A stretch of DNA of 64,000 nucleotides from an uncultured bacterium. GTDB lineage: Bacteria; Omnitrophota; Omnitrophia; Omnitrophales; Aquincolibacteriaceae. The stretch covers positions 21,861-85,860 of the forward strand of contig CAYPIR010000001.1 in assembly GCA_964410905.1 (NCBI GenBank). Direction: 5' to 3'. The translations under genes and the position numbers were made by a program. Of this stretch, positions 1 through 16,723 are shown in pieces. The notes below the pieces were generated by a model. It searched no databases, was not told where the DNA came from, and saw only the letters and a program-made list of their open reading frames with translations. Numbering within the stretch: position 1 is the first letter of the stretch; each line of letters begins with the position of its first letter.

Positions 1-600
1 ATTATAAAAAGCATCATCTATCATAGAAAAACTTTTTGTTACAAATATTGTTTGCTGTAAAAAAAGAAGATCTCCGCCCAAACAAATGCCTTCCGGAAAT
101 CGAATATTGTTATCAAGAACAAGACTCCTACGATATATTGCCGTCCACCAATAAAGATTAAAATAAAATTTATCATTACCGTGTTTGGCTATAATGCTAT
201 TCAATTGAACTGTTTTGGTTTTTCCATAATAGTCCGTCTCTTTCGCGTTGCCTTTGACTATATCCGCATTTGTTTCTATCTTTTTCTCCCAAAGTTTCTC
301 ATAAAAATCCAAATCGACTTCATCATCGTTGTCCACAAAACCCAGATATTCTCCAGTTGCCAAATCTAATCCTTTGTTTCTAGCGACTGATTCTCCGCCG
401 TTTTTTTCATTACAAACCGCTTTAAGATTAGAATATTTTTTTGAATATTCTTGAATAATCTCCCAAGAATCATCCGTAGAAGCATCGTCCACCACGATTA
501 TTTCTATGTCTTTAAGCGTTTGATTACATACGCTGTCGAGACATCTACGCAAGTATAATTCTGCGTTATAAACTGGAATAATTATAGAAACCTTAGGCAC
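1..600 (-). CDS. glycosyltransferase family 2 protein (partial; N-terminal part in window, gene continues past window start)
   Basis: Minus-strand frame is open from the GTG at 598-600 down to position 1. Translation VPKVSIIIPVYNAELYLRRCLDSVCNQTLKDIEIIVVDDASTDDS...GEYLGFVDNDDEVDLDFYEKL carries GT2 signatures (IIPVYN, VDDxS, DxDD) and is paralogous to the N-terminus of the adjacent 593..2266 ORF. It is absent from the ORF track because no stop falls in the window. Confidence 0.75.
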   Translation of the reverse strand, partial: MPKVSIIIPVYNAELYLRRCLDSVCNQTLKDIEIIVVDDASTDDSWEIIQEYSKKYSNLKAVCNEKNGGESVARNKGLDLATGEYLGFVDNDDEVDLDFYEKLWEKKIETNADIVKGNAKETDYYGKTKTVQLNSIIAKHGNDKFYFNLYWWTAIYRRSLVLDNNIRFPEGICLGGDLLFLQQTIFVTKSFSMIDDAFYN

Positions 601-2266
601 TAGCTACCAACCTCTTCTTGAGAATTGAAAAAAGTTCAATTTTAGTCATCGGCTTAAAACCCTCTTTAAAACCCACAGTGGAACAAGTTCCCGCAAATAA
701 GTTTCCTTTATACTTTTTATCCAAATATTCCTTGGATTGCCAATATGTTCTAGGCAATCTAAGAGTAAATCCTGCATCTGAACAATGGCAACAATCCATA
801 ACAACAATTCGAGATTCAATGCCATGCTTGATGTGGGCGGATATGCAAAAATCTTCAACATAAAGATCCCACTGCAGGCATTCATCGAAACGTAATTTAT
901 ATTTATTTATGAGAGATGAATGAGCAATAAGACATTGACAATCAAATGTATCTACTTTTTCATCGCCTGTAATCACTTTGCCTGCCAGCCTGTTTGTTTC
1001 ACTGCCATCTCTGCATTCTTGAAATATCGTACCTTTCAATTCGTTATAAAAAAAAGTATCTATATATCCAATTTTTGCTCCAACAGGCCCCCACAAAAAT
1101 GTCTTATCAAGGTTTTCTATCTTGGGCAAAACATTTTCGAGAACTTCCCAATCTGAGTGACAGAAGACAAACCACGCGGGCTTAGAATATTCATATTTAT
1201 CTAGAAATTGATTATATCTTTCAGCGACTCCAATGTTTTTAACACTATTATCAAAAGCGTGAAACTCTATCTGTTGTTCATTTGAAATAAATCCATTTTT
1301 GCGCACTAAACGATTATACAAATCAAAATCTTGAACAACGCTAATAAAATAAATACTCTTATTTGCCATCTTACGTCTACCCACTTCGCGACAAAAATTT
1401 ATACACGCCGTCGTTGAAATTTTAAGCATCTCTGCTCGAACAAGATCTTTATAATTCAGCGAGTCATAAAAATCTAAAAGTTGGCTGAGCATAAAACTAG
1501 CCATTTCTTTCCCATGCGTATACATGTAACAAGTAGAAAACCATAAACTTAAAACAAAGGCTTTGGATTTTGTAGATATGGCCGCAGATTCAACCTCATT
1601 AAACAAGATGCGCATACCTTCAATTTTATCGTGGACACTAAAGCTGCTCCGCCTAGCAAGTAAAGCTTCACTCTCAAGCACATAATATTTAGCTTCATCG
1701 CATACTTTAACTGCGTTTGATTTAAGCGCTACCAGAAAAGCAAAAATTGGATCCTCCATATCTCGTAATAGCGGAAAAGTAATATTGGAACTTTTTAATA
1801 AATTTTTTCTATATATTGCACTAGCAAATTCCGCAGAAAAGGTATTTTTATCCACCTTTACTCTGCCATTCAAAAACATATTTTGAACTCCACTTGAAAT
1901 AAAAAAATAGATTCCCTTCACTACATCCGCCGCTGTTTCGACCGCCTTACTATGCAACTTCTCATAAAAATCCAAGTCAATAAAATCGTCTGAATCGACA
2001 AATCCGATATATTCTCCCGCCGCTGCTTCTATCCCAATATTGCGAGCGACTGCGGCGCCTCTATTTTCAGATTGTTCAATTATTTTTATCCTAGAGTCTT
2101 TAGCGGCATATTCTTTCAAAATCGCAAGCGAGCCGTCTGTCGATTTGTCATCTACGCAGATAATCTCAATATCCTTCAACGTCTGGGCGCAAACCGTATC
2201 CAAACATTTCCTGAAATACTGTTCTGGCACGTTATAAACTGGAATAATCACTGAAACTTTAGGCAT
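593..2266 (-). CDS. two-domain glycosyltransferase (N-terminal GT2 domain plus C-terminal GT-like domain)
   Basis: 557-aa ORF. N-terminus MPKVSVIIPVYN...ICVDDKSTDGS...GFVDSDD matches GT-A/GT2 motifs. A second ~300-aa C-terminal domain follows with no intervening stop. The stop TAA (593-595) overlaps the GTG start of the downstream paralog by 8 nt. Confidence 0.8.
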   Translation of the reverse strand: MPKVSVIIPVYNVPEQYFRKCLDTVCAQTLKDIEIICVDDKSTDGSLAILKEYAAKDSRIKIIEQSENRGAAVARNIGIEAAAGEYIGFVDSDDFIDLDFYEKLHSKAVETAADVVKGIYFFISSGVQNMFLNGRVKVDKNTFSAEFASAIYRKNLLKSSNITFPLLRDMEDPIFAFLVALKSNAVKVCDEAKYYVLESEALLARRSSFSVHDKIEGMRILFNEVESAAISTKSKAFVLSLWFSTCYMYTHGKEMASFMLSQLLDFYDSLNYKDLVRAEMLKISTTACINFCREVGRRKMANKSIYFISVVQDFDLYNRLVRKNGFISNEQQIEFHAFDNSVKNIGVAERYNQFLDKYEYSKPAWFVFCHSDWEVLENVLPKIENLDKTFLWGPVGAKIGYIDTFFYNELKGTIFQECRDGSETNRLAGKVITGDEKVDTFDCQCLIAHSSLINKYKLRFDECLQWDLYVEDFCISAHIKHGIESRIVVMDCCHCSDAGFTLRLPRTYWQSKEYLDKKYKGNLFAGTCSTVGFKEGFKPMTKIELFSILKKRLVASA

Positions 2267-2267
2267 T

Positions 2268-2283
2268 CCCCCCCCTTTTTTTT
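2268..2283. repeat. homopolymeric C8-T8 tract (A8-G8 on the coding strand) ending 1 nt upstream of the ATG of the 593..2266 glycosyltransferase
   Basis: Direct read: positions 2268-2275 are C8 and 2276-2283 are T8. On the minus strand this reads ...caaaaaaaaGGGGGGGGaATG, so the G8 occupies the ribosome-binding-site position. Confidence 0.9.
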
Positions 2284-2337
2284 GAATTTTCTTCTAACAT
2301 TATGAGTAAACCAATCTTTGAAACTATAGCGCCCCGC

Positions 2338-3531
2338 TTAATCACCAATTAATCCAAGTGAAAATAACGGTTTTTTCTCTGTTGTATTAAAAGCATAAGA
2401 GTCAGCCAATATTATTTTTCTTCCTGTTTTCACGCCTTTAAACTGACTTCGCCCCTTACCCTTTCCTCCGATTTCAAAAACTGTATCCATATCCGTCAAA
2501 ATGTAATCTGGGGTCTTTTTCCCAGTGGTCGATTTTAAATAATTGATTTTTTTGCCGAAAATTTTGCAACATTGCGCAAAAAAATCCTCTCTCAAGCCGC
2601 CCAAAGCCAAGTCAAAACCATTAAACAATAACCGATACGGCAAACTCAACAAAACTTTAGGCTCTTTTAAAACGTTTGTTCCCGTAGGGAATATCACCTG
2701 AATGACAAACGACTGCTCCAAAAGCAATACATATTGTTCAGCCTTATACTTTGTAATTCCTAAATTTTTCGATATGCTCGAATAATTAATTCCGTCCACA
2801 GCCGATAAGGCAGCAAATTTAACTAGTTTGCTTATCGTATTTAACTCTTCCATAGTTATATTTCTGTTAACTCGCGGAATATCTTTGTAAAGAATGGCGT
2901 TCAAAATGTTATCAAGCAGCGGAATAATGTCCGGTTCGTCTAACGCAAAAGGCATTAATCCGCCTTTTATGTAATCGTAAAAATATTCTCCATACCGCAG
3001 TAACGAAACAGGTAATTTTTTACCCATAAAATCTTCTAAACTGAGCGGCTCAATTACTGCGTCTGTTTTAAATTCAATATATTCACGCAAAGAAAACGGA
3101 TACAGCGGCTTTAATATTAGGCGGCGCGACATATCGTTTTTATATTTCCCCATAGACAGCGCCGTAGAACTTGTAAAGAACACTTTTAAATCTAACAATT
3201 CATAAACACTTTGTATCTCTTTATCAAAATTCGCATACGCATGAACTTCGTCCAGCAAGAAAACTCTTATACCCAGTTTCTCTTTCAAATCCTTTAAGGT
3301 CTCAAACATTTTTCCTTCAAAGGATTCCATCGATATGTAAAAAGAATTTTCAAGCTTTAAAGCAAGTTGTTTTAAAGTTGTAGTTTTTCCCACGCCGCGT
3401 GGTCCAACTATGCCAACAAAGTGCTTACCTTTATCAGACAACAATTCCGCAAAAAGCCTTCTGCTTCTTTTGAATTGCTTAGCACTTTCTTTTGACAGCC
3501 TATCCAATTCTACGAGTTTGCTAATTTCCAT
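2338..3531 (-). CDS. AAA+ ATPase, DUF4143-type (AAA_14 + DUF4143 architecture)
   Basis: Walker A GIVGPRGVGKTT and Walker B VFLLDEVH. The overall layout matches the widespread COG1373-like predicted ATPases of unknown function. Confidence 0.75.
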   Translation of the reverse strand: MEISKLVELDRLSKESAKQFKRSRRLFAELLSDKGKHFVGIVGPRGVGKTTTLKQLALKLENSFYISMESFEGKMFETLKDLKEKLGIRVFLLDEVHAYANFDKEIQSVYELLDLKVFFTSSTALSMGKYKNDMSRRLILKPLYPFSLREYIEFKTDAVIEPLSLEDFMGKKLPVSLLRYGEYFYDYIKGGLMPFALDEPDIIPLLDNILNAILYKDIPRVNRNITMEELNTISKLVKFAALSAVDGINYSSISKNLGITKYKAEQYVLLLEQSFVIQVIFPTGTNVLKEPKVLLSLPYRLLFNGFDLALGGLREDFFAQCCKIFGKKINYLKSTTGKKTPDYILTDMDTVFEIGGKGKGRSQFKGVKTGRKIILADSYAFNTTEKKPLFSLGLIGD

Positions 3532-3544
3532 ATTTCAGCCCTCC

Positions 3545-3619
3545 AATAATGTTATTTTGTCCAATCATTAAACAAAATATATACTATATTGTCAAGTAAT
3601 TAAACAAAATAACATTATT
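3545..3619. promoter_or_regulatory. 16-bp perfect inverted repeat (AATAATGTTATTTTGT ... ACAAAATAACATTATT) enclosing two 13-nt direct repeats ATTAAACAAAATA
   Basis: Arms lie at 3545-3560 and 3604-3619. Direct repeats lie at 3567-3579 and 3599-3611. The element sits between the stop of the PqqD-like gene and the start of the ATPase gene on the minus strand. It is a candidate terminator, operator or both. Confidence 0.4.
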
Positions 3620-3636
3620 CTGGCACATAAACTCAT

Positions 3637-4131
3637 CTATTGAGCCCCGTCCTTTCCCATTTCTTCTTCTTTTGCTTTTTTTGCCTTAAGCTTTTCGGCG
3701 TCCGTTTCGAGCGCGCTTTTTTCTGGCGTCCAGCCCGTGTCATCTTTAACTTCATGGATTGGGTCGGCAAGCAGCAATTCTTGCGCGTCGTTATATTCTG
3801 TAACAAACAATGCGAAATTTTCCGCTGTCGCAATTTTGCTATTAATTGCAGCCCCGCCCTTTCCATCTCCGCCGGCAACGATAAGCCCTTTTTCAACCAA
3901 CGCGTCAACAAATAATTTAAAATTTTCATCAATATTAGCAGGGACTCCCGCTATAGACTTTAGAGATGCCAAAACCGCTTCGCTAGATGCTCCTCCGATA
4001 ATGCGCGCAAATACTTCCGTTCCAAGCGGATTCATTCCGTAATAAATGCCCGTTTCTGAATTAATGACGATTGCGATTCCATCCGCAATGTCGGAAAACA
4101 TTTTCGATTCGTTTAAAACATAATTTGCCAT
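3637..4131 (-). CDS. PqqD-family (RRE-like) peptide-chaperone-like protein with long C-terminal low-complexity tail
   Basis: The N-terminal ~90 aa (…FSDIADGIAIVINSETGIYYGMNPLGTEVFARI…) resembles the PqqD/RiPP-recognition-element fold. The C-terminal ~70 aa are acidic and Lys-rich (…AEKLKAKKAKEEEMGKDGAQ). The ATG lies 1 nt from the upstream kinase stop, so the two are translationally coupled. Confidence 0.65.
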   Translation of the reverse strand: MANYVLNESKMFSDIADGIAIVINSETGIYYGMNPLGTEVFARIIGGASSEAVLASLKSIAGVPANIDENFKLFVDALVEKGLIVAGGDGKGGAAINSKIATAENFALFVTEYNDAQELLLADPIHEVKDDTGWTPEKSALETDAEKLKAKKAKEEEMGKDGAQ

Positions 4132-4132
4132 T

Positions 4133-5221
4133 TTATTTTTTCTCCTTGTTTAGTTTGTTGCAAAACTCTCGCAAGCATTCGACATTGGCATAAATATCGG
4201 GTGAGAGATTTATTTGATAAAAGTTGAAGTCCCTAACAAAATTCATTAATTTGCGAACTGTTGCAATATCAAGCTTGTCGCCCATCTGATTGATAGTTGA
4301 ATGAATAAGCTGCGTAATCGCTCTGCCTTTTTCGCACGACGCAATTGAGGGAGCTTTGTCAGATACAATTTCAGGGAAAATGCACGCTTTGATCGCGTAG
4401 TTTTCTCTGAACTGTTTGTGATAATTAGAAATGCTAAATACGTATTTATCACGCCTCGCGTTGTTGGAAACAAACTTGCCGTCAAACTCATAATAAAGTT
4501 CGTTCCACATTCGCGGGCTCAAAGTAACAATGGAATATATTGGCGAACTGAGCAATTTGCCATTCGTTTGTTTTTCTAAGATAAGATAATCATCTGAAAC
4601 ATATTCAAAGCCTTGCATCATAGACAATACCGCCAAAGTAGATTTGCCGCGTTGTCCGCGCGCGCATACCAAAACTCCGCTGCCGTTTAATCCTACCACC
4701 GCCGCATGAACAAGGTTTGCCGTCGGCGATTTGATGACCTTGTTGAAAAGCTGCACAAAAATATGCCCTTGTTTTATGAACTCTTCCGGGTCAAGATTTT
4801 CAGCGGCATAATAGTATGTATTGTTTTTTGCATCGTAAGCATTAACAAAACCTGTCGTTGGAAAAACAGAAATGTTAGAGCCGTCATCGCCTTTAATGTC
4901 GACATCAATCCAATCTTGATGTAAGACTAACTTTTCAATTCTCGCGCGCATTTTGCCGTGCGAATCAAGCAAGGATTCTGACAACTGTTTTATTTTTGTT
5001 TCTTTCCAAATAACAAGCGTCGCGTCATAGCAATCCGAGTTTGATTTCAATGTAAAGGCGAGTTGTTTTTCAACAAGAGGCGTCCACTCTTTATGAAAAC
5101 ATTCAATTCGCAATGTCTTAGAACCTAATCGCACAAACCGTATCCATTCGCGCGTGTTTGTTTGGCGAATATTGCTATCAAGTTTTTGGACATATGCCGG
5201 CGCATCGCCTTTTATGAACAT
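4133..5221 (-). CDS. HPr kinase/phosphorylase-related serine-kinase-like protein (HprK-related kinase)
   Basis: The P-loop GLNGSGVLVCARGQRGKST is followed by YVSDDYLIL, matching the C-terminal catalytic domain pattern of HprK (GxSGxGKSE ... DD). Its start overlaps the stop of the upstream nucleotidyltransferase gene by 10 nt. Confidence 0.65.
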   Translation of the reverse strand: MFIKGDAPAYVQKLDSNIRQTNTREWIRFVRLGSKTLRIECFHKEWTPLVEKQLAFTLKSNSDCYDATLVIWKETKIKQLSESLLDSHGKMRARIEKLVLHQDWIDVDIKGDDGSNISVFPTTGFVNAYDAKNNTYYYAAENLDPEEFIKQGHIFVQLFNKVIKSPTANLVHAAVVGLNGSGVLVCARGQRGKSTLAVLSMMQGFEYVSDDYLILEKQTNGKLLSSPIYSIVTLSPRMWNELYYEFDGKFVSNNARRDKYVFSISNYHKQFRENYAIKACIFPEIVSDKAPSIASCEKGRAITQLIHSTINQMGDKLDIATVRKLMNFVRDFNFYQINLSPDIYANVECLREFCNKLNKEKK

Positions 5222-6216
5222 TTTCGCTGCTCCCGCATTGAATTAAATCCCTCAGCCATTTTTAAAAACAGCGCTATTAACTGATCGCTTTTGCCAATTG
5301 TTTTAAGAAATCTGTGATAAGGCTTATCTTTTAACCAATTTTTCATTACTTCAAAATTTTTAATCGCATTTTTCAGCTTTAATTTTTTGCAGCGCCATTT
5401 CACATCATAGACATAAAATCTGTAAAAAACCAAACGGTTCCTATAATTTGCTGCGGATTTTTTTAGCTTTTTATTGTGGAGAAATAAATCGGGCAAGAGA
5501 TTGGGCGATATGCGATTTAAAAGTTTTGCGGCAAAAAACAATGTCGCTTCGCAAGATGCCTTTTGGGCATTTTGAAAAACTCTTTTCCAATCAAAATTAG
5601 GATTAGTTTCGAGCAAATATTTAATGTCAAAAAGAGCAAACAAAACTCCGCCTAGGGTTGTTTTGTAATGCAAATTTCGGCTTATGTTGGTCAGCGCGAC
5701 AAATACAAAATCCTCAGGGGTAGGCACAAACGCTCTCGCGCCGAAAACATCTTGCAAAGTTGCCCGCGAAAAAAAGTCTCTCATTAAACTTTTGTCATAA
5801 TCAGGGACATCAAAATCAATAAAACGATGTATATCAACCGTTCCTTCGTCCGTTCCTTTTGGATGTAAGTCCGCCGAGTAGGCATTAAATTCCGCGACCG
5901 TATAGCCGAGATTTTTTGCTATCTCAAGCGACTTTCTATAATCTTCTTCGCGTACCAAAATATCTATGTCGCCCATTGCTCTGGGTAATTCCGGTCTTAT
6001 ATATTTCATCGCGCCGCCTTTTAAAATCATTGGAATAATTCCGTTTTGGTTAAGGGCGCGGACGACTTTGCCAAAATGCGCGATAAGTTTGAGGTTGGCA
6101 AAACGATGAAATTCCAGAACTCCTTTTAAACGCGGATAAATTAGGTCGGGCACGTCAAAATTAGGACGGGATTTTATTGTATACGAGAGAAGTAAAATTT
6201 TTCTGCCATCCGCCAA
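5212..6216 (-). CDS. nucleotidyltransferase family protein (uncharacterised NTase, PF14907-like); true start probably upstream at ATG 6428-6430 in a repeat-dependent frame
   Basis: Minimal-nucleotidyltransferase motif GDIDILV is preceded by LKGGAM. The track start is a TTG with no Shine-Dalgarno sequence. The same reading frame stays open for a further 56 codons upstream, running through the (CAAG)n tract to 6431 (protein-like sequence DTNRLSFLKEDKVFWAEEAFYQEIV...). Confidence 0.7.
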   Translation of the reverse strand: MADGRKILLLSYTIKSRPNFDVPDLIYPRLKGVLEFHRFANLKLIAHFGKVVRALNQNGIIPMILKGGAMKYIRPELPRAMGDIDILVREEDYRKSLEIAKNLGYTVAEFNAYSADLHPKGTDEGTVDIHRFIDFDVPDYDKSLMRDFFSRATLQDVFGARAFVPTPEDFVFVALTNISRNLHYKTTLGGVLFALFDIKYLLETNPNFDWKRVFQNAQKASCEATLFFAAKLLNRISPNLLPDLFLHNKKLKKSAANYRNRLVFYRFYVYDVKWRCKKLKLKNAIKNFEVMKNWLKDKPYHRFLKTIGKSDQLIALFLKMAEGFNSMREQRKCS

Positions 6217-6376
6217 TTCGATATCAAAATCGATGAGAAAATCATCTAGTGTTTTTTGCGTGGATTCTTCGCGGAAAGCAAGATCGATAAGTTTTTGGTC
6301 TTTTTGCGAAACAATTTCTTGATAAAACGCTTCTTCCGCCCAAAAGACTTTGTCTTCTTTTAAAAAACTTAATCGA

Positions 6377-6430
<54 letters not shown>

Positions 6431-6491
6431 TCTTAAACTCGCGGTTTTGCATTTTTTAAAAATTAGAAAAATAATTTTCTGTCCATTTTTT

Positions 6492-7520
6492 CTATTTCGT
6501 TAAGAGTTCGTTAACTTTATTCATTACCGCGAACGCGTCGGCGACATAAAGCACATCGGCTTTACCTTGCGCCCAGCCGCAATTGGCGTCTGTATTAACG
6601 GCGCGACGTTCGTTAATGAAACGCCAACCGACAACATGCGGTTCCTCACCGTGACAACAAGTCGCAAGCCCTTTTGGATGTCTGGGCGTAGACCCCGTTT
6701 GCCCGACTTGATTCATGTGCCCAATAAAAGAAAGAACCGCCTCGCCTTCAGCTCCAAGGTCGACAAGCGATTTACTGCTTCCAAGAGACGCTTTTGTATT
6801 TTTGAGAAAATCTAAAATATGTTTTTCGGCATCTTTCGAATGCGTCTGGCCATCGGCTTGTTTTTTTGTCCATCCCGCACCCGCAACAAATAAAAGTTCC
6901 GCGTCAGGACGAATTGTCTGCGCGTCTGCTGGCGGAGCCTGAACACCAACCGATTTGGTTCGTTTGTCTGCGTCTGTTAAAGCAACTGTTACTGCCTCAA
7001 CCGCCGCGGAACCAGCCGTGCCATTAAATGCTTGAAACACTCCCGAATCAACCGCCAAAATCCAAGGACGCGCCGCGCGAGAAAGTGTCGCAACCATTCG
7101 CTGACGGTAATACCAACGTTGGATATTGAGTTTTCCGTCCTGAATAGAAATTCCGCTTATATGCGTATCAATTGCTCCGTTTAATCGAAACGAAAGTCCC
7201 GGCAACGCACGCGCAAAACGGCTTGTTGAAGGCGCGATTATGATTGCCGCGCCTGATGTCTTTGCTATTGCTTCAAGAGCCTTAACATCTGAGGCATAGC
7301 GTGAATCCGCGAAATCGGCGCCCGAAACGCCATAAATCTTAGTGGCTCCCGCTCCGGCAATTTGGTCGGCCGCAGATTTAACGTCAGCGCCAATCAAGCC
7401 TATAGAAAGTTCCGCGTTTAAATCTTTTGTAATTTGCCGCGCTCCCGATAAAACCTCAAGCGCGATTTTGGGAAGGCTTCCATTTGAATCCGTATGTGCT
7501 AAATAAAGAATTTTTTCCAT
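6492..7520 (-). CDS. etfA: electron transfer flavoprotein subunit alpha
   Basis: 342 aa. C-terminal FAD-binding region carries VGQTG ... AVNTDAN ... ADxxxV motifs typical of EtfA. It lies adjacent to etfB. Confidence 0.85.
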   Translation of the reverse strand: MEKILYLAHTDSNGSLPKIALEVLSGARQITKDLNAELSIGLIGADVKSAADQIAGAGATKIYGVSGADFADSRYASDVKALEAIAKTSGAAIIIAPSTSRFARALPGLSFRLNGAIDTHISGISIQDGKLNIQRWYYRQRMVATLSRAARPWILAVDSGVFQAFNGTAGSAAVEAVTVALTDADKRTKSVGVQAPPADAQTIRPDAELLFVAGAGWTKKQADGQTHSKDAEKHILDFLKNTKASLGSSKSLVDLGAEGEAVLSFIGHMNQVGQTGSTPRHPKGLATCCHGEEPHVVGWRFINERRAVNTDANCGWAQGKADVLYVADAFAVMNKVNELLTK

Positions 7521-8406: not shown

Positions 8407-10260
8407 TTAATTAACATTTGAATGCAGTCCGCCGGAACCAGCGCGGAAATCCACGTTCGTCAAATCACTCCCGCGTTCACGTTCGCATGAGCAATTCCAA
8501 AGACATGCCGCGCAATGAATACATTTTTCACGGTCAAAAAGCGGAACTCCGCCATCGGAGTTTGCCGTTATGGCTTGCCCTGAGCACATCTCAATACAAA
8601 TTTTTGTTTTACATTTTTTGCATTTTTCAGAATCTAAAAACACAACGTGATCGGCAAAACCGTCGGCGGCTTGAACTTTTCCGCCTAGTAAGAGCGCGTC
8701 CTGATGCGACAAGAGCAATTTTCCATCGTATTGAATTTTAGGCCAACCTGCCAAATCCATCAAATCATCGTGAACGGATGTATTGGTTTCAGCCGCCTTT
8801 TTGCGCGCCTCTTCAATTTTTTCCGGCGCGATTTTGCCTTTGTAATAATCTTCAATGGAAGGAACGCGTTCAGAAACAGTTTTTAATTTCACGGGGATGT
8901 TAAGAAAGCCTTTTGTAAAACCAGAAAGCCCCATTCCAATCATTCCAAGTTCAAAACAAGCGCTAAATCCATCGCGCGCTTTTTCCGCCAACTTGCCGTC
9001 TTTTTGAATCCAGCTCTCGCGGCGGGTTTTGAGATATGTCGCCTCAAGATTTTCTTTTGTCGTCGGCTTCCCTTCTTTTAAAAGTTGAATATATCCTTCG
9101 GCAAGCTGCGTCCCCGTTGTCCATGCCTCATCAACGCCAGAACCTTTTAACATATTTGTGCTACCTGAGCCTTCGCCGATGCGCGCAAAACCGTCGCCTA
9201 CAATAAATGGCTCGCCGCGAATCCCCGCTTCTTGCAAACTCTTCGCGCCCCAGGATTTTAAAGCCGCGCCTTGCAAATGTTTCCACAAAACAGGATGCTG
9301 CATCCAGTGCTGAAAATAGCGATATGCCGTGCGGACAGGGTTATCAAGCCAAGACGGAATAAAAATTCCAAGCGACGCGACGCGATCAGGATATACATAA
9401 AGAAAACCAAAAATCTCGGGTTCCGGATAGCCGAATGTATGAATTACAGTCCCGGGCTGAAGCGTTGTGTTTTCCGGCAAATCAATTACCGCTTTCATGC
9501 CTAGCGCCCATTCTCGTTGATGATTTCCTTCAGGCAATCCAAATGTATTGTCTAATTTTTGCCCGACCGGACCGTATGGACCGTCGCCTACAACAGTAAA
9601 AGGCGCGTTAATATTCATACCCGGAGAAAACGATCCCGTAGGATTTCCATTTTTCTCAACTCCTTGATCAGCAAGTCTAACCCCCGCTACGCGATTAGAA
9701 TCAAAAAGAGGTTCTTTTACGGGCATTCCCGGCCAAATTTGGACAAGTCCGGACCCCATCAAATTGGAACCAACCCATTGCGTAAACTGTCCCATGGATA
9801 AAATCCAACCACCATGCTTTGCCATAAAGGGAGGAATAAAAGGAAGTTTAAACGAATGGTCTTTAAACCAAGGAAGAATTCCGCCAAGAATTCGCAAAGT
9901 TCCATCTACTATTTTAAGAAGCCAAGAACGGCGGCTTGCGCCGACTGGGTCAAGCAGATAATAGACTTCTTCGTTCTTTACGGGAGTCGCGAGCGGAATT
10001 TGCGCTAACTCTTCAGAAGACAACGATTGTTTAATGCCCTTTGCTTCTGTAACTATTCCCGAAACACCAAAACCAATATCATCGGCGCGTTCATAACAAA
10101 TTACTTGAAGAGGCATTCCTGGCGCAACCTTACTTTGAAAATGTTCAGCGGTGGGTTCTTTTTGAATTTCTTGAGTTAACTTGTGAAGAAATCCCGCGGT
10201 AGCCGGTCCAAAACCAACACAAACAACATCAACGTCAATTTTTTGTCGTTCAACTGTCAT
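8407..10260 (-). CDS. electron-transfer flavoprotein:quinone oxidoreductase (ETF-QO/FixC-like) with C-terminal 4Fe-4S ferredoxin domain
   Basis: 617 aa. N-terminal FAD-binding GxGxxG (VCVGFGPATAG) and a C-terminal ferredoxin cysteine pattern (CxxCxxxC, CIHCAACLWNC). Placed in the ETF operon. Confidence 0.8.
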   Translation of the reverse strand: MTVERQKIDVDVVCVGFGPATAGFLHKLTQEIQKEPTAEHFQSKVAPGMPLQVICYERADDIGFGVSGIVTEAKGIKQSLSSEELAQIPLATPVKNEEVYYLLDPVGASRRSWLLKIVDGTLRILGGILPWFKDHSFKLPFIPPFMAKHGGWILSMGQFTQWVGSNLMGSGLVQIWPGMPVKEPLFDSNRVAGVRLADQGVEKNGNPTGSFSPGMNINAPFTVVGDGPYGPVGQKLDNTFGLPEGNHQREWALGMKAVIDLPENTTLQPGTVIHTFGYPEPEIFGFLYVYPDRVASLGIFIPSWLDNPVRTAYRYFQHWMQHPVLWKHLQGAALKSWGAKSLQEAGIRGEPFIVGDGFARIGEGSGSTNMLKGSGVDEAWTTGTQLAEGYIQLLKEGKPTTKENLEATYLKTRRESWIQKDGKLAEKARDGFSACFELGMIGMGLSGFTKGFLNIPVKLKTVSERVPSIEDYYKGKIAPEKIEEARKKAAETNTSVHDDLMDLAGWPKIQYDGKLLLSHQDALLLGGKVQAADGFADHVVFLDSEKCKKCKTKICIEMCSGQAITANSDGGVPLFDREKCIHCAACLWNCSCERERGSDLTNVDFRAGSGGLHSNVN

Positions 10261-10488
10261 TTTTACCCCTTATGGTAAGAGTGTTTTTAAAAACAAATTG
10301 GATTCCGCAATAAAACAATTTGCAAAATGTCGCCCCTGTAAAATCAATAATTTTACAAGAAAAATTCGGCAGAGATTAACAAACGATGCCGCGAGAATAC
10401 GCGGAGGCTTGATAATCTCTGTCGAATTTTTTATTCATCTAACTAACTTTCAAACAAAAACATCAGAAATGGCTATTAGCAAACCATC

Positions 10489-12651: not shown

Positions 12652-12729
12652 GAAAGCCGATCCAAGAGTTAAAAAGTAGAGTGATATTATTCAAAAACAA
12701 CTCTAGTTGCAAGAAAAAATAAGGGCAGT

Positions 12730-13470
12730 TTAAACGTTGTCTATGATTAACTTCAAAATCTCTAAAACATCGTGCTTATGCGCAACCGACAACATTCCAA
12801 ACAGCCTAAAAATTTCAAGAAACACGTCCGCATTGCTGTCATCAATTACAAATTCAGCCTCTTCTTTTTGTTCTGCCGTTCTGCCAATTAGCACAGTGTC
12901 TGTCTTCAGTTTTGTTATTGGGAAACACAAATAAAGCATAGGCATAATCCCAACTGCATACTGCTTTTCTCTTGTAATTATTTCAACGACAATATCAAAA
13001 TCTCCAAATTTATGAACTAGCAATGGATATTCGACACTAGATGTTTCAAAAGTAATTTCATTTAATAGAATTTTAACCGGATTTGTCCGCTTTATTTTGA
13101 GTTCGTTTTCCAAAAGATTAAAATCCTCACCAGCATTAACAAAATTTATCAATTTATTTATTTTTTGCTTATCGATTAAACCGTTCTTCGCTAAGTGAAA
13201 AACATACTCTGAAAGTTCATAAAGAGATTTCCGTTTACTATTCGCGCCAGTAAAAGTTAAGTCTTGCAAAGATGTTGTTTTCTTACCTTTTTCGATATCA
13301 GACAAAATTGCGTCATAACCAATTTGCCATTCGACATACATATCCTGAGAAAATGGCGTTTGACGAGTTGCGACAGAAAAACCATATTCATAAATCATTT
13401 TCCGTCTTTTAATTCTGACTTTGCCATTGGTTGTAACTAGTGGGATTTTAATTTTGTATTGGTAACTCAT
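12730..13470 (-). CDS. hypothetical protein, candidate type II restriction endonuclease partnering the adjacent methyltransferase
   Basis: 246-aa ORF in an AT-rich island. Its start overlaps the stop of the upstream methyltransferase by 4 nt. No recognisable family; a possible D...E..K-like segment (GDFDIVVEIITREK) is present. Confidence 0.45.
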   Translation of the reverse strand: MSYQYKIKIPLVTTNGKVRIKRRKMIYEYGFSVATRQTPFSQDMYVEWQIGYDAILSDIEKGKKTTSLQDLTFTGANSKRKSLYELSEYVFHLAKNGLIDKQKINKLINFVNAGEDFNLLENELKIKRTNPVKILLNEITFETSSVEYPLLVHKFGDFDIVVEIITREKQYAVGIMPMLYLCFPITKLKTDTVLIGRTAEQKEEAEFVIDDSNADVFLEIFRLFGMLSVAHKHDVLEILKLIIDNV

Positions 13471-14630
13471 AGCAAAATTGTCCGCTTAAATAGCTTGTCA
13501 AAATAAATGTTAACTCTTTGTTTTGATAGTTGAATTTGGGCATCATCTATTTGGCTTGTTCCAAATATATCCGGATGCTTCGCACGCGATAAAATTTCAA
13601 AATCTTTTCTATAGACCTTAAATGCCTCATTATTAATAGGCACGTTTAGATTCCCCATATAGTAAGGCAGTCTTTCAGCATAGTCTTTAAAAATATCAAC
13701 ATATTGATAATATTCAAGTTTGCTAGACTTAACCTGAACAGCATTTGGAATATCTTCCTTAATGAATGTTCTGCTTCGTTTTAGTGCATTGATGTCTCGC
13801 ATAGTATAAAAAAGAAAGCCCTTCCAATTCTGCCTTTTATATCTACTAGGATACTTATCCAAATAGTTATCAATATAATCAAATTGATTTAATGAAAATG
13901 TCAAACCTTCCAGAGTTTTAAAACTCCAAGCCTCAACATCCTTAAAGGTCATTCCATGTCCATCTTTTTTATAAATAGCAATAACTATTGGGAAACCAGT
14001 CATTTTGGAGACTTCAGAAAATTCTTGGCTTGAAAACACCAAAGTATCAAGCAATTTATAATTATTTAAAAATGGTTTGAGGCTATTAAAATTAGTTTTT
14101 TTGATTAAATAGGATAGCGGATGCAAAACCGCAACAAATTCGGGCTTTAATTTATTATAAGCAAGCAAAGACGACAAACCAATGTCTCGCGATTCAATGT
14201 CTTTATCAACAGGATACCTAGCCTCAGTTTTTATATCGCATTTAACATGCGAAGTTTTATCGTTATAAGGCGGATTCCCGACCAAAATAACTTTTGCATA
14301 ATCGCTGATACCATAATTAATTCTATTAACTCGATGCAAAGCATTTTGTTTTAAAAAAGTAATTTCTGGGAAATTAGATTTTGCAGTTTCTAGCGCCATT
14401 AAATCAATATCTGCACCAACACATCTAACTTGGAGAGGCAAATCAACATTAAAAAAAGCTCCATATCCACAGCTTGGTTCTAATAAAACATCACAGCTTT
14501 CAAAAGCATTATATTTGTTTAGCAACTCGTACGTTTTAGAAACAAGTTTTTGCGGTGTATAGAAACTGCCTAAATTTGTCTTATCACTATAACTTAAATG
14601 CCTCGCTGTTTTATCTAATAAATTTTGCAT
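13467..14630 (-). CDS. gamma-class N6-adenine DNA methyltransferase (TaqI/Eco57I-like)
   Basis: Motif X GSFYTPQKLV, motif I LEPSCGYGAFF and motif IV VGNPPY occur in the gamma-class order. The C-terminal ~250 aa are a candidate target-recognition domain. Confidence 0.8.
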   Translation of the reverse strand: MQNLLDKTARHLSYSDKTNLGSFYTPQKLVSKTYELLNKYNAFESCDVLLEPSCGYGAFFNVDLPLQVRCVGADIDLMALETAKSNFPEITFLKQNALHRVNRINYGISDYAKVILVGNPPYNDKTSHVKCDIKTEARYPVDKDIESRDIGLSSLLAYNKLKPEFVAVLHPLSYLIKKTNFNSLKPFLNNYKLLDTLVFSSQEFSEVSKMTGFPIVIAIYKKDGHGMTFKDVEAWSFKTLEGLTFSLNQFDYIDNYLDKYPSRYKRQNWKGFLFYTMRDINALKRSRTFIKEDIPNAVQVKSSKLEYYQYVDIFKDYAERLPYYMGNLNVPINNEAFKVYRKDFEILSRAKHPDIFGTSQIDDAQIQLSKQRVNIYFDKLFKRTILL

Positions 14631-14704: not shown

Positions 14705-16723
14705 TTACTTTCCCCAGCGGAACATCAACGCGCCAAGCGGCGGAATACTTATGTTCATTGAAAACGGTCTATATTGCCAAGCCGTCGACTCCGCGTGAAC
14801 GCCGCCCAAATTCCCAATTCCGCAGCCTCCATATTCATTTCCTTGGGAATTTAAAATCTCTTTGTAATATCCCCAGCGCGGAACGCCCACTCGATAATTA
14901 CGCAAAACCACGGGTGTCATATTAAATACAAAAATAAGCACGGATTTTCTGTCCCGAGACCAACGCAAGAAACTTATAACCGAATGGGCGCTATCCGAGT
15001 GGTCTATCCACTCAAAAAGCTCCGGCGAATCATCAGTTTCATAAAGCGCGGGATTCGCGCGGTAAATACGATTCAAATCTCTGACAAATTCACTGATAAG
15101 ATGATGCGCGGGCGACTTTGTCAGGTGCCAATCAAGCGACTGCGCGTAATTCCATTCATTTCTCTGGGCGAAATCCGTCCCCATAAACAAAAGTTTTTTA
15201 CCGGGAAAAGCAAACATATAACTTAAAAAAAGCCTGCTTCCAGAAAACTTCCGCCAATCGCTGCCGGGCATTTTTTCAAGCAAAGACCGTTTGCCATAAA
15301 CAAGTTCATCATGCGAAATGGGCAAAATATAGTTCTCGGAAAACGCGTAGCCCGCTGAAAACGGGAAAACGTCTTGATGCCATTTACGATAAATCGGGTC
15401 TTTTGAAAAGTATTCAATTGTGTCGTGCATCCAGCCCATATTCCATTTCATGCTGAATCCAAGACCGCCAAGATGAACGGGCTTTGACACCGCGGGCCAC
15501 GCCGTGGACTCTTCGGCAATAGTCAAAACTCCAGGATATTTTGCGTGAACAACTCGGTTTAGACGCTTCAGAAACTCTATCGCTTCAAGATTTTCTCTGC
15601 CGCCGTATTTGTTCGCTTCCCATTCGCCGTCTTTCCTCGAATAATTTAGATAAAGCATGCAGGACACCGCGTCCACTCTGAGTCCGTCGACGTGATATTT
15701 GTCCAGCCAGAACAGCGCGTTAGAAATAAGAAAATTATCAACCTCGCGGCGCCCAAAATCGAACACCAAAGTTCCCCATTCTTTTTGCTCGGCGCGCCGC
15801 CAATTCGGAGACGAATAAATCGGCGTTCCGTCAAAATCAAAAAGCCCGTGTCCATCGCGGGGAAAATGCGCCGGCACCCAATCCAAAATCACGCCTATTC
15901 CGTGCTGATGGCAATAATCCACAAAATACATCAAATCTTCTGGCGAACCATAACGCTTCGTAGGCGCGTAATAATTGATGACTTGATAACCCCAAGATTC
16001 ATCCAACGGATACTCCATAACAGGCATCAGTTCTATATGCGTGTAGCCCATGTATTGAACATATTCAACTAGTTGGCGCGCGAGATCTCGATAGTTCAAA
16101 AATCCCCAGCCGTTTTCGCCGTCTCGTTTCCACGACCCCAAATGGACCTCATAAATCGATATTGGCGAAGTTTGCGTTTTTTTATTGTTTCGTTCTTCAA
16201 GCCACTCGCGATCGTTCCATTTATATTTGGCGAGAGAAGAAACTACGGCAGCGGTTTTTGGACGCAGTTCGGTTTCAAACGCGTAAGGATCCGTTTTAAA
16301 CAAGACGGCATCGGTTTCTTTAGAACGAATCGCAAACTTATAAAGCGCGCCATCCCGAAGTTTTGGAATAAAAATAACCCACATGCCAGAAAATGGAATT
16401 TGCGACATCAAATGTTTCTCTGCGTTCCATTTATTAAAATCGCCGACAACTGAAACCGATTTCGCGTTCGGCGCCCATACGGTAAAAAGCACGCCCTTTT
16501 CGCCTTTTATCACGACAGGGTGCGCGCCCATTTTTTCATAACTTCTATAGTGACTTCCTTCATTCAAAAGATAGAGGTCATAATCGCTGATAGAAACGGG
16601 AAATGACGCGGACTTTTTATTTTTTATTCTTGCCGCGCGCAAAGGTTTAGAAACCGTAATGCTTTTTCGTTTCGCTGATTTTATTTTTCTTGTTTTTATT
16701 TTTTTTCGGTTTTTATAATTCAT
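14705..16723 (-). CDS. glgB: 1,4-alpha-glucan branching enzyme
   Basis: 672 aa with the GH13 branching-enzyme pattern (…YLLNEGSHYRSYEKMGAHP…, catalytic core). A ~40-aa Lys/Arg-rich N-terminal extension is present. Confidence 0.9.
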   Translation of the reverse strand: MNYKNRKKIKTRKIKSAKRKSITVSKPLRAARIKNKKSASFPVSISDYDLYLLNEGSHYRSYEKMGAHPVVIKGEKGVLFTVWAPNAKSVSVVGDFNKWNAEKHLMSQIPFSGMWVIFIPKLRDGALYKFAIRSKETDAVLFKTDPYAFETELRPKTAAVVSSLAKYKWNDREWLEERNNKKTQTSPISIYEVHLGSWKRDGENGWGFLNYRDLARQLVEYVQYMGYTHIELMPVMEYPLDESWGYQVINYYAPTKRYGSPEDLMYFVDYCHQHGIGVILDWVPAHFPRDGHGLFDFDGTPIYSSPNWRRAEQKEWGTLVFDFGRREVDNFLISNALFWLDKYHVDGLRVDAVSCMLYLNYSRKDGEWEANKYGGRENLEAIEFLKRLNRVVHAKYPGVLTIAEESTAWPAVSKPVHLGGLGFSMKWNMGWMHDTIEYFSKDPIYRKWHQDVFPFSAGYAFSENYILPISHDELVYGKRSLLEKMPGSDWRKFSGSRLFLSYMFAFPGKKLLFMGTDFAQRNEWNYAQSLDWHLTKSPAHHLISEFVRDLNRIYRANPALYETDDSPELFEWIDHSDSAHSVISFLRWSRDRKSVLIFVFNMTPVVLRNYRVGVPRWGYYKEILNSQGNEYGGCGIGNLGGVHAESTAWQYRPFSMNISIPPLGALMFRWGK

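Follow-up and report, generated by a model that had tools for sequence, protein, structure and literature searches.

Does a run of eight Gs that nearly touches the start codon of a glycosyltransferase gene in an uncultured Omnitrophota bacterium control that gene through changes in its length, or is it an ordinary ribosome-binding site? We addressed this question in a 64,000-nucleotide stretch of DNA, referred to here as the window, for which a preliminary description had proposed that the G tract may be an on/off or volume control and that a second hypermutable tract 4 kb away may combine with it to vary a surface polysaccharide. On the + strand, CCCCCCCC occupies window positions 2268–2275 and TTTTTTTT positions 2276–2283, giving C8 and then T8. 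The coding (−) strand reads, 5′ to 3′ across 2283–2264, AAAAAAAAGGGGGGGG-A-ATG, with a single base (2267) between G8 and the ATG. The G8 had been described as preceded by A8 and as abutting the glycosyltransferase start codon, which, with its 1-nt gap, is nearly exact. The features at this end of the window are:

1–600, − strand: second GT2 gene, incomplete at the window edge (PF00535, 4.3e-40)
593–2266, − strand: glycosyltransferase with two GT-A domains, 557 aa (PF00535, motif DSDD, AF2 model, Foldseek)
2264–2266, − strand: ATG start codon of this bifunctional glycosyltransferase (M1 invariant in 22 homologues)
2268–2275, − strand: G8 homopolymer (C8 on the + strand); Gs 1–5 and the two As before them make up the Shine–Dalgarno sequence, and Gs 6–8 and A2267 make up the spacer
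2276–2283, − strand: A8 run immediately 5′ of G8, source of the two As in AAGGGGG and of an A-rich leader

The glycosyltransferase had been called a two-domain protein, and both halves could be assigned. Its N-terminal domain matched PF00535 in Pfam (2.5e-39, residues 5–142), and the three aspartates of its Asp-rich, DXD-type motif DSDD (D91, D93 and D94) are invariant across 22 homologues. Residues from about 297 to 557 had no match in Pfam, and a sequence-profile search of this C-terminal domain against the PDB returned noise only. An AF2 model of the protein (pLDDT 88) gave the domain a GT-A fold, and Foldseek placed 2nxv/2qgi at the top of its matches (TM 0.69–0.72), followed by heparosan synthase 2, ppGalNAc-T, chondroitin synthase and SpsA. 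We also found that MPKVSVIIPVYN aligned at residue 1 in 21 of 22 homologues and that M1 was invariant in the alignment; the ATG at 2266–2264 is therefore the true start, and the tract is non-coding. The second GT2 gene starts with GTG (600–598) and overlaps the stop of the first (GTGCCTAA). From this arrangement the two genes are probably translationally coupled, and the A8G8 leader probably feeds both.

Among 5.8 billion proteins, the best homologue of the glycosyltransferase reached 45% identity across its full length; a partial match reached 52%. Exact-sequence searches with the glycosyltransferase gave no contig, although the protein itself is present in an NCBI-derived set. Among the matches listed in a scan of a genome collection, no orthologue exceeded 51% identity over a comparable stretch, and the matches of higher identity covered only about 115 N-terminal residues. 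Two scans of JGI metagenomes, one spanning the tract with a variable gap and the other using a degenerate back-translation of the glycosyltransferase N terminus, gave no match.

We found that the strongest pairing of the leader with the canonical anti-Shine–Dalgarno sequence is a 7-bp duplex formed by AAGGGGG at the A/G junction. Its energy, −11.2 kcal/mol, ranks fourth strongest of 35 genes. Canonical Shine–Dalgarno sequences occur throughout the window; two other genes have AAGGGG followed by 5 nt, and more than four Gs are found in no other Shine–Dalgarno sequence of the window. The spacer is made of the Gs left over plus one A, that is, n−4 nt for n Gs. At G8 it measures 4 nt, at the short end of the 3–10 nt range in other well-paired genes of the window, a comparison that is rough only, as the pairing register differs from gene to gene. 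Sequence and energy calculation together identify A8G8 as the ribosome-binding site of the glycosyltransferase, and the conserved ATG and the 7-bp duplex confirm what had been claimed of the tract, that it lies in the ribosome-binding-site position and outside the coding sequence.

This geometry bears on what a change in tract length could do. Because the spacer is n−4 nt, slippage would grade translation rather than switch it on or off. Any five Gs can pair with the anti-Shine–Dalgarno sequence, so a one-unit change may have a small effect; the size of the effect of G8 length on expression is something that we infer. Folding of the leader with G4 to G13 revealed no length-dependent mRNA structure, and a riboswitch-like or hairpin mechanism was dropped on that ground. 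The tract Gs were mostly unpaired in the predicted fold (unpaired probability about 0.6).

No G/C run of at least 7 other than C8 occurs in the 64 kb. Second in length is a single G6, the G6/C6 at 30240, which is the only other G/C run of at least 6 in the window; it sits between PBP and a 303-aa ORF, probably inside a short unlisted gene. At a G+C content of 41.8%, the window contained 12 C5 runs against 27 expected, no C6 run against 6.4 expected and no C7 run against 1.5 expected, a depletion of G/C runs that grows with run length. With the tract masked, an independent-base model predicted about 0.69 G/C runs of at least 8 per window, by which G8 alone is unremarkable. Third-order and fourth-order Markov models, also with the tract masked, predicted about 0.09 and about 0.03 such runs, respectively (C and G summed). 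G8 is over-represented against this background and is an outlier against the decay of run lengths. The A8 is compositionally ordinary, as the + strand of the window holds 26 T runs of at least 8.

Two Logan assemblies, L083 (SRR11845625) and L084 (SRR27197510), contained an identical A8G8. An assembly artefact is ruled out, because independent Logan assemblies from different runs give the same sequence as the window, three assemblies in all from at least two sequencing runs. G8 was present in all three copies; these represent one clone, with 100% identity over 2.8–3.4 kb, and all Logan contigs are 99.97–100% identical to the window, so their agreement on G8 speaks only weakly for stability. 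The two Logan contigs running across G8 end within 33 nt of each other (1636–1669), inside the glycosyltransferase gene and at a place without a repeat. These ends may reflect a strain-divergence branch in the assembly graph of the glycosyltransferase, or simply low coverage.

The second hypermutable-type tract, which the preliminary description had placed 4 kb away in the same locus, proved to be real, and we found that it shares with G8 not just a neighbourhood but one conserved cassette. The features of this cassette upstream of the glycosyltransferase are:

2338–3531, − strand: AAA_14/DUF4143 ATPase gene, between the PqqD-like gene and the glycosyltransferase (Pfam domains)
3545–3619: region upstream of the ATPase gene with a 35-nt imperfect palindrome, motif TATTTTGTCAAA / TTTGACAAAATA
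3637–4131, − strand: PqqD-like gene (peptide-recognition-element type), third of the cassette (domain match; conserved copies)
4133–5221, − strand: HPr-kinase-related gene, second of the cassette, whose start overlaps the NTP_transf_5 stop by 10 nt
5212–6452, − strand: NTP_transf_5 nucleotidyltransferase gene, first of the cassette (PF14907), with the repeat in its 5′ coding region
6384–6423, − strand: perfect (CAAG)10 tetranucleotide repeat ((CTTG)10 on the + strand), 100% pure and 4.1 kb from G8

Both G8 and (CAAG)10 lie within this one 6.4-kb cassette, and the remaining 57 kb of the window contain no such repeat. Empirical cut-offs for phase-variable repeats are at least 7 units for poly-G/C and at least 5 units for tetranucleotides (PMC6321876); both repeats exceed these PhasomeIt values. 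Both are also placed where a one-unit change would alter expression, G8 as Shine–Dalgarno sequence and spacer and (CAAG)10 by setting the reading frame.

The frame of the NTP_transf_5 gene is open across the repeat, and two alternative starts, ATG1 (6452–6450) and ATG2 (6430–6428), lie before it in different frames. ATG1 is in frame at n = 8 and 11 and ATG2 at n = 9 and 12; the assembly has n = 10, which puts neither ATG in frame. Homology to the orthologue in locus L091 begins 17 residues past the repeat, upstream of the first in-frame internal start (6216). This places the repeat truly inside the gene, and in the assembly that gene is either OFF or truncated. Judged by its sequence, (CAAG)n has the classical design of a tetranucleotide frameshift switch and is far more convincing as a switch than G8. 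The k-mer limit explains why the Logan contigs L081, L082 and L085 each break off within (CAAG)n.

Comparison with homologous loci separated the older parts of this arrangement from the newer ones. In the locus of the homologue P0020, a two-domain glycosyltransferase is preceded, in order, by NTP_transf_5, a 375-aa HPrK-like gene and a PqqD-like gene. The same three genes lie upstream of the glycosyltransferase match in Gastranaerophilales, Rickettsiales and Alphaproteobacteria MAGs, adjoining it in the first two and standing about 2.5 kb off in the Alphaproteobacteria MAG. PqqD-like copies with 56–62% identity are found directly upstream of the glycosyltransferase in L001, L003 and L091–94, and about 2.5 kb upstream in L004. 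By sequence comparison the cassette, itself uncharacterised, is conserved across Omnitrophota, Gastranaerophilales and alphaproteobacterial MAGs. In three relatives the glycosyltransferase starts 0–12 nt from the PqqD stop, and these relatives have no repeats at the position of either G8 or (CAAG)n. The comparison does not support the preliminary reading: the position equivalent to G8 is not a homopolymer in the only syntenic relatives, which belong to other phyla and are 41–51% identical over the matched stretch of the glycosyltransferase.

Homologues of the ATPase (69–77% identity) occur in unrelated genomic contexts, and their 3′ flanks are not conserved. As the cassette is found elsewhere without it, the ATPase is an insertion here. 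The palindrome motif recurs upstream of the 69–77% identical ATPase genes in L086, L087, L089 and L090, suggesting that ATPase and palindrome form an autonomous module that moves between loci and is probably self-regulated. We searched the flanks of the module for target-site duplications or direct repeats and found nothing convincing; a 9-nt flank match read by eye (ATAATGTTA) is within chance. The A8G8 leader is thus lineage-specific and lies on the glycosyltransferase side of an ATPase insertion that broke an ancestral tight PqqD–glycosyltransferase junction.

What the cassette makes is a separate matter. In lasso-peptide clusters, an HPr-kinase phosphorylates a C-terminal serine, and a nucleotidyltransferase has been linked to glycosylation of that serine (PMC7533575). 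The tailoring set of those clusters resembles the present cassette in that the HPr-kinase, PqqD, nucleotidyltransferase and GT2 families occur together beside the glycosyltransferase. In contrast to the lasso clusters, we saw no lasso cyclase, leader protease or precursor peptide in the present cassette or in L091–94. With no lasso cyclase or protease, the surface polysaccharide named as the product in the preliminary description stays an assumption; by analogy, the partner genes resemble enzymes that phosphorylate and glycosylate peptides.

Positions 1–6400 of the window have a low G+C content (35–39%) compared with 46% in the adjoining ETF genes, and the nearest homologues of the glycosyltransferase are in gut-associated MAGs of other phyla. 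The low G+C content and the presence of the nearest homologues in other phyla are consistent with horizontal acquisition of the cassette. The window, part of a 153,953-bp contig, also encodes LigA, 64–67% identical to proteins named ‘Candidatus Omnitrophota bacterium’, together with DnaE, RpoD, DnaG, GuaA, RNase P RNA and two tRNAs, and is therefore chromosomal DNA; nearly all of its genes are on the − strand. A second low-G+C patch (37%) lies at 12730–14630, where an ORF with an NPPY motif overlaps a 246-aa ORF. The former is probably an N6-adenine DNA methyltransferase, and the patch may be a restriction-modification or defence module.

We observed that long poly-G/C tracts recur among 80 loci fetched by homology to the glycosyltransferase. 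L077, from a Gastranaerophilales MAG with 31% G+C, carries five G11–G12 tracts within 17.7 kb of a glycosyltransferase cluster (1223–1234, 9374–9384, 10429–10439, 12667–12677 and 14091–14101), each followed by TAA. One G11 there sits 4 nt ahead of a GT2 ATG; the others are at gene ends or early in ORFs. In L019, a C10 at 1397–1406, which is G10 on the other strand, lies twelve codons after an ATG with an AAGGAGG Shine–Dalgarno sequence; it is out of frame with the downstream ORF (523–1305), is divergent from the GT2 homologue and resembles a frameshift switch that is OFF. L042, a 2372-bp scaffold of Brachyspira innocens ATCC 29796, begins with (AAGC)10 at 1–40, the same repeat unit as the CAAG of the window, 100 nt upstream of the GT2 start, and ends with (GTGTT)19 at 2278–2372 beside a divergent gene; bounded by repeats in this way, the assembly broke at both. 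In L024, from a Candidatus Parendomicrobium MAG, G9 (13283–13291) and G12 (15086–15097) are each followed by the −10-like TATAGTT, which suggests that these tracts are promoter-associated. These loci show that repeats around such glycosyltransferase genes are common in uncultured, host-associated lineages; they show nothing direct about the window.

We propose that A8G8 is the translation-initiation region of an operon made up of the bifunctional glycosyltransferase and the coupled second GT2. A pure G8 is by nature liable to gain or lose one unit through slipped-strand events. A change of one G would shift the distance between the Shine–Dalgarno sequence and the AUG and would grade the amount of glycosyltransferase instead of turning it fully off; shorter tracts would be translated worse, and somewhat longer ones equally well or better. 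Of the two modes of control suggested in the preliminary description, the graded, volume-like one would fit this geometry, and on/off switching is not predicted by it. Counting in favour of such a slippage-driven translational rheostat are the unique G/C run of at least 7, the strong Shine–Dalgarno sequence, the n−4 spacer and the repeat switch in the cassette. Counting against it are the syntenic cassettes without repeats in other phyla and the presence of G8 in every copy, the latter a weak point as the copies come from one clone. With eight Gs, the tract is close to the shortest for which phase variation has been demonstrated. On balance we put the probability of the rheostat at about 0.45.

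The proposal can be extended to the whole cassette, whose first gene would carry the (CAAG)n frameshift switch, OFF in the assembly, so that the two repeats together could produce combinatorial variation of a glycoconjugate. We regard as rather doubtful this fuller picture of a two-switch contingency system on a conserved glycosylation cassette, in which a two-start (CAAG)n frameshift is combined with poly-G tuning of Shine–Dalgarno sequence and spacer.

The strongest competitor of the rheostat, to which we would give somewhat less than even odds, is a fixed, strong ribosome-binding site. According to this explanation, the purine-rich leader was selected, or arose by chance, after the ATPase separated the glycosyltransferase from its partner; the homopolymer is incidental, is held at G8 by purifying selection and has no biologically useful rate of variation. 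The tract is indeed a top-quartile Shine–Dalgarno sequence with a spacing that other genes use too, although AAGGGGG suffices for that function, and three spacer Gs besides are improbable in an AT-rich genome. A fixed site would sit well with the identity of the three assemblies and with relatives that have no repeat at this position, but less well with a genome that otherwise avoids G/C runs longer than 5, with a window in which other Shine–Dalgarno sequences stop at four Gs, and with a high-confidence repeat switch in the same cassette. Also in its favour, G8 is barely above the cut-offs, and the PhasomeIt authors caution that the mutation rate of tracts close to the cut-off may be too low for real switching (PMC6321876).

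We give little credence to the G-run as a landing site for a trans-acting, C/U-rich small RNA or an RNA-binding protein, comparable to RepG, which would provide conditional regulation with its sign or strength set by tract length. The G-repeat in the 5′ untranslated region (5′UTR) upstream of a lipopolysaccharide glycosyltransferase operon in Helicobacter pylori acts in this way (PMC8322730), and the predicted accessibility of the tract Gs would permit it here. However, no candidate small RNA emerged within the window, where the Rfam matches were limited to RNase P RNA and two tRNAs, none of them near the tract. In addition, the tract overlaps the Shine–Dalgarno sequence, so simple Shine–Dalgarno function explains it without a partner.

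Least credible of all is an action on transcription, through tract length altering promoter geometry or through a start inside A8/G8 with reiterative transcription: promoter-located poly-G/C tracts are a known class (Neisseria porA and opc, Treponema pallidum tpr genes), and visual reading of the 71-nt intergenic region suggests weak promoter-like elements (TGTTAGAAG; TTGGTT-N17-GAAAAT), which would put the start site in or just before A8, but a consensus scan found no promoter on the − strand in 2267–2337, promoter and terminator matches in 500–6600 were fewer than in shuffled sequence, with none in the glycosyltransferase leader, and a scan found no terminator between the ATPase gene and the glycosyltransferase, making read-through possible. 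A promoter-spacer switch of the Neisseria porA/opc type is excluded, because the tract ends 1 nt before the ATG and cannot sit between −35 and −10, and there is no − strand promoter match.

Repeat-driven phase variation is textbook knowledge for host-adapted pathogens and, to our knowledge, is essentially undescribed in candidate phyla known from metagenomes alone. A full-text literature search for Omnitrophota together with ‘phase variation’ returned no paper. If the two-switch reading is true, Omnitrophota would gain their first described case of repeat-driven phase variation, one that would include a distinct translational mode, the control of spacing by a homopolymeric Shine–Dalgarno sequence. 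Omnitrophota have ultra-small cells and are predicted to be host-dependent (PMC10066038), and stochastic changes in a glycoconjugate, whether secreted or on the surface, would fit a way of life in which cells attach to others or evade phages. A homopolymer that serves as both Shine–Dalgarno sequence and spacer also offers a simple model for graded rather than binary control. A8G8 is plausible as a credible, slippage-prone ‘volume knob’ of a familiar kind; its interest lies mainly in the phylum and in the Shine–Dalgarno–spacer geometry, and its practical value is modest.

How familiar that kind is can be judged from known systems. Haemophilus influenzae has tetranucleotide switches with several start codons, in lic1A and lic2A (CAAT) and in lex2A (GCAA), and GCAA and CAAG are one repeat in different register. 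The companion (CAAG)10 is like them in being perfect, in following closely on alternative ATGs in different frames and in lying at the 5′ end of the first gene of a glycan-modifying cluster; it is unlike them in belonging to an NTP_transf_5 nucleotidyltransferase gene of an uncultured environmental Omnitrophota. For G8, the lgt tracts of Neisseria, mostly poly-G of 9–15 (PMC5953494), and the tracts of Campylobacter jejuni NCTC 11168, where all those of at least 8 vary (PMC6321876), provide the parallel of poly-G at glycosyltransferase genes, which in those species build variable surface glycans. Those tracts lie inside the reading frame and give true on/off switching by frameshift, whereas G8 lies outside the ORF.

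Closer parallels are found outside coding sequence. The G-repeat in the 5′UTR of H. pylori tlpB-hp0102 gives gradual, rheostat-like post-transcriptional control through the small RNA RepG (PMC8322730). It shares with A8G8 a G-run in the untranslated leader of an operon with a glycosyltransferase; it differs in needing RepG and in lying upstream of the Shine–Dalgarno sequence, whereas here the run is itself Shine–Dalgarno sequence and spacer. In the espR 5′UTR of Mycobacterium tuberculosis, a +1 variant of a 7G tract raises translation efficiency (PMC11898584), a likeness in that a short, non-coding tract of 7–8 Gs can act as a translational phase variant. The espR tract, 144 bp ahead of the start codon, works by way of 5′UTR folding, whereas a change in the spacing between Shine–Dalgarno sequence and AUG is proposed here. 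The nearest functional analogues of A8G8 are these non-coding G-tracts that tune translation, tlpB-hp0102 and espR.
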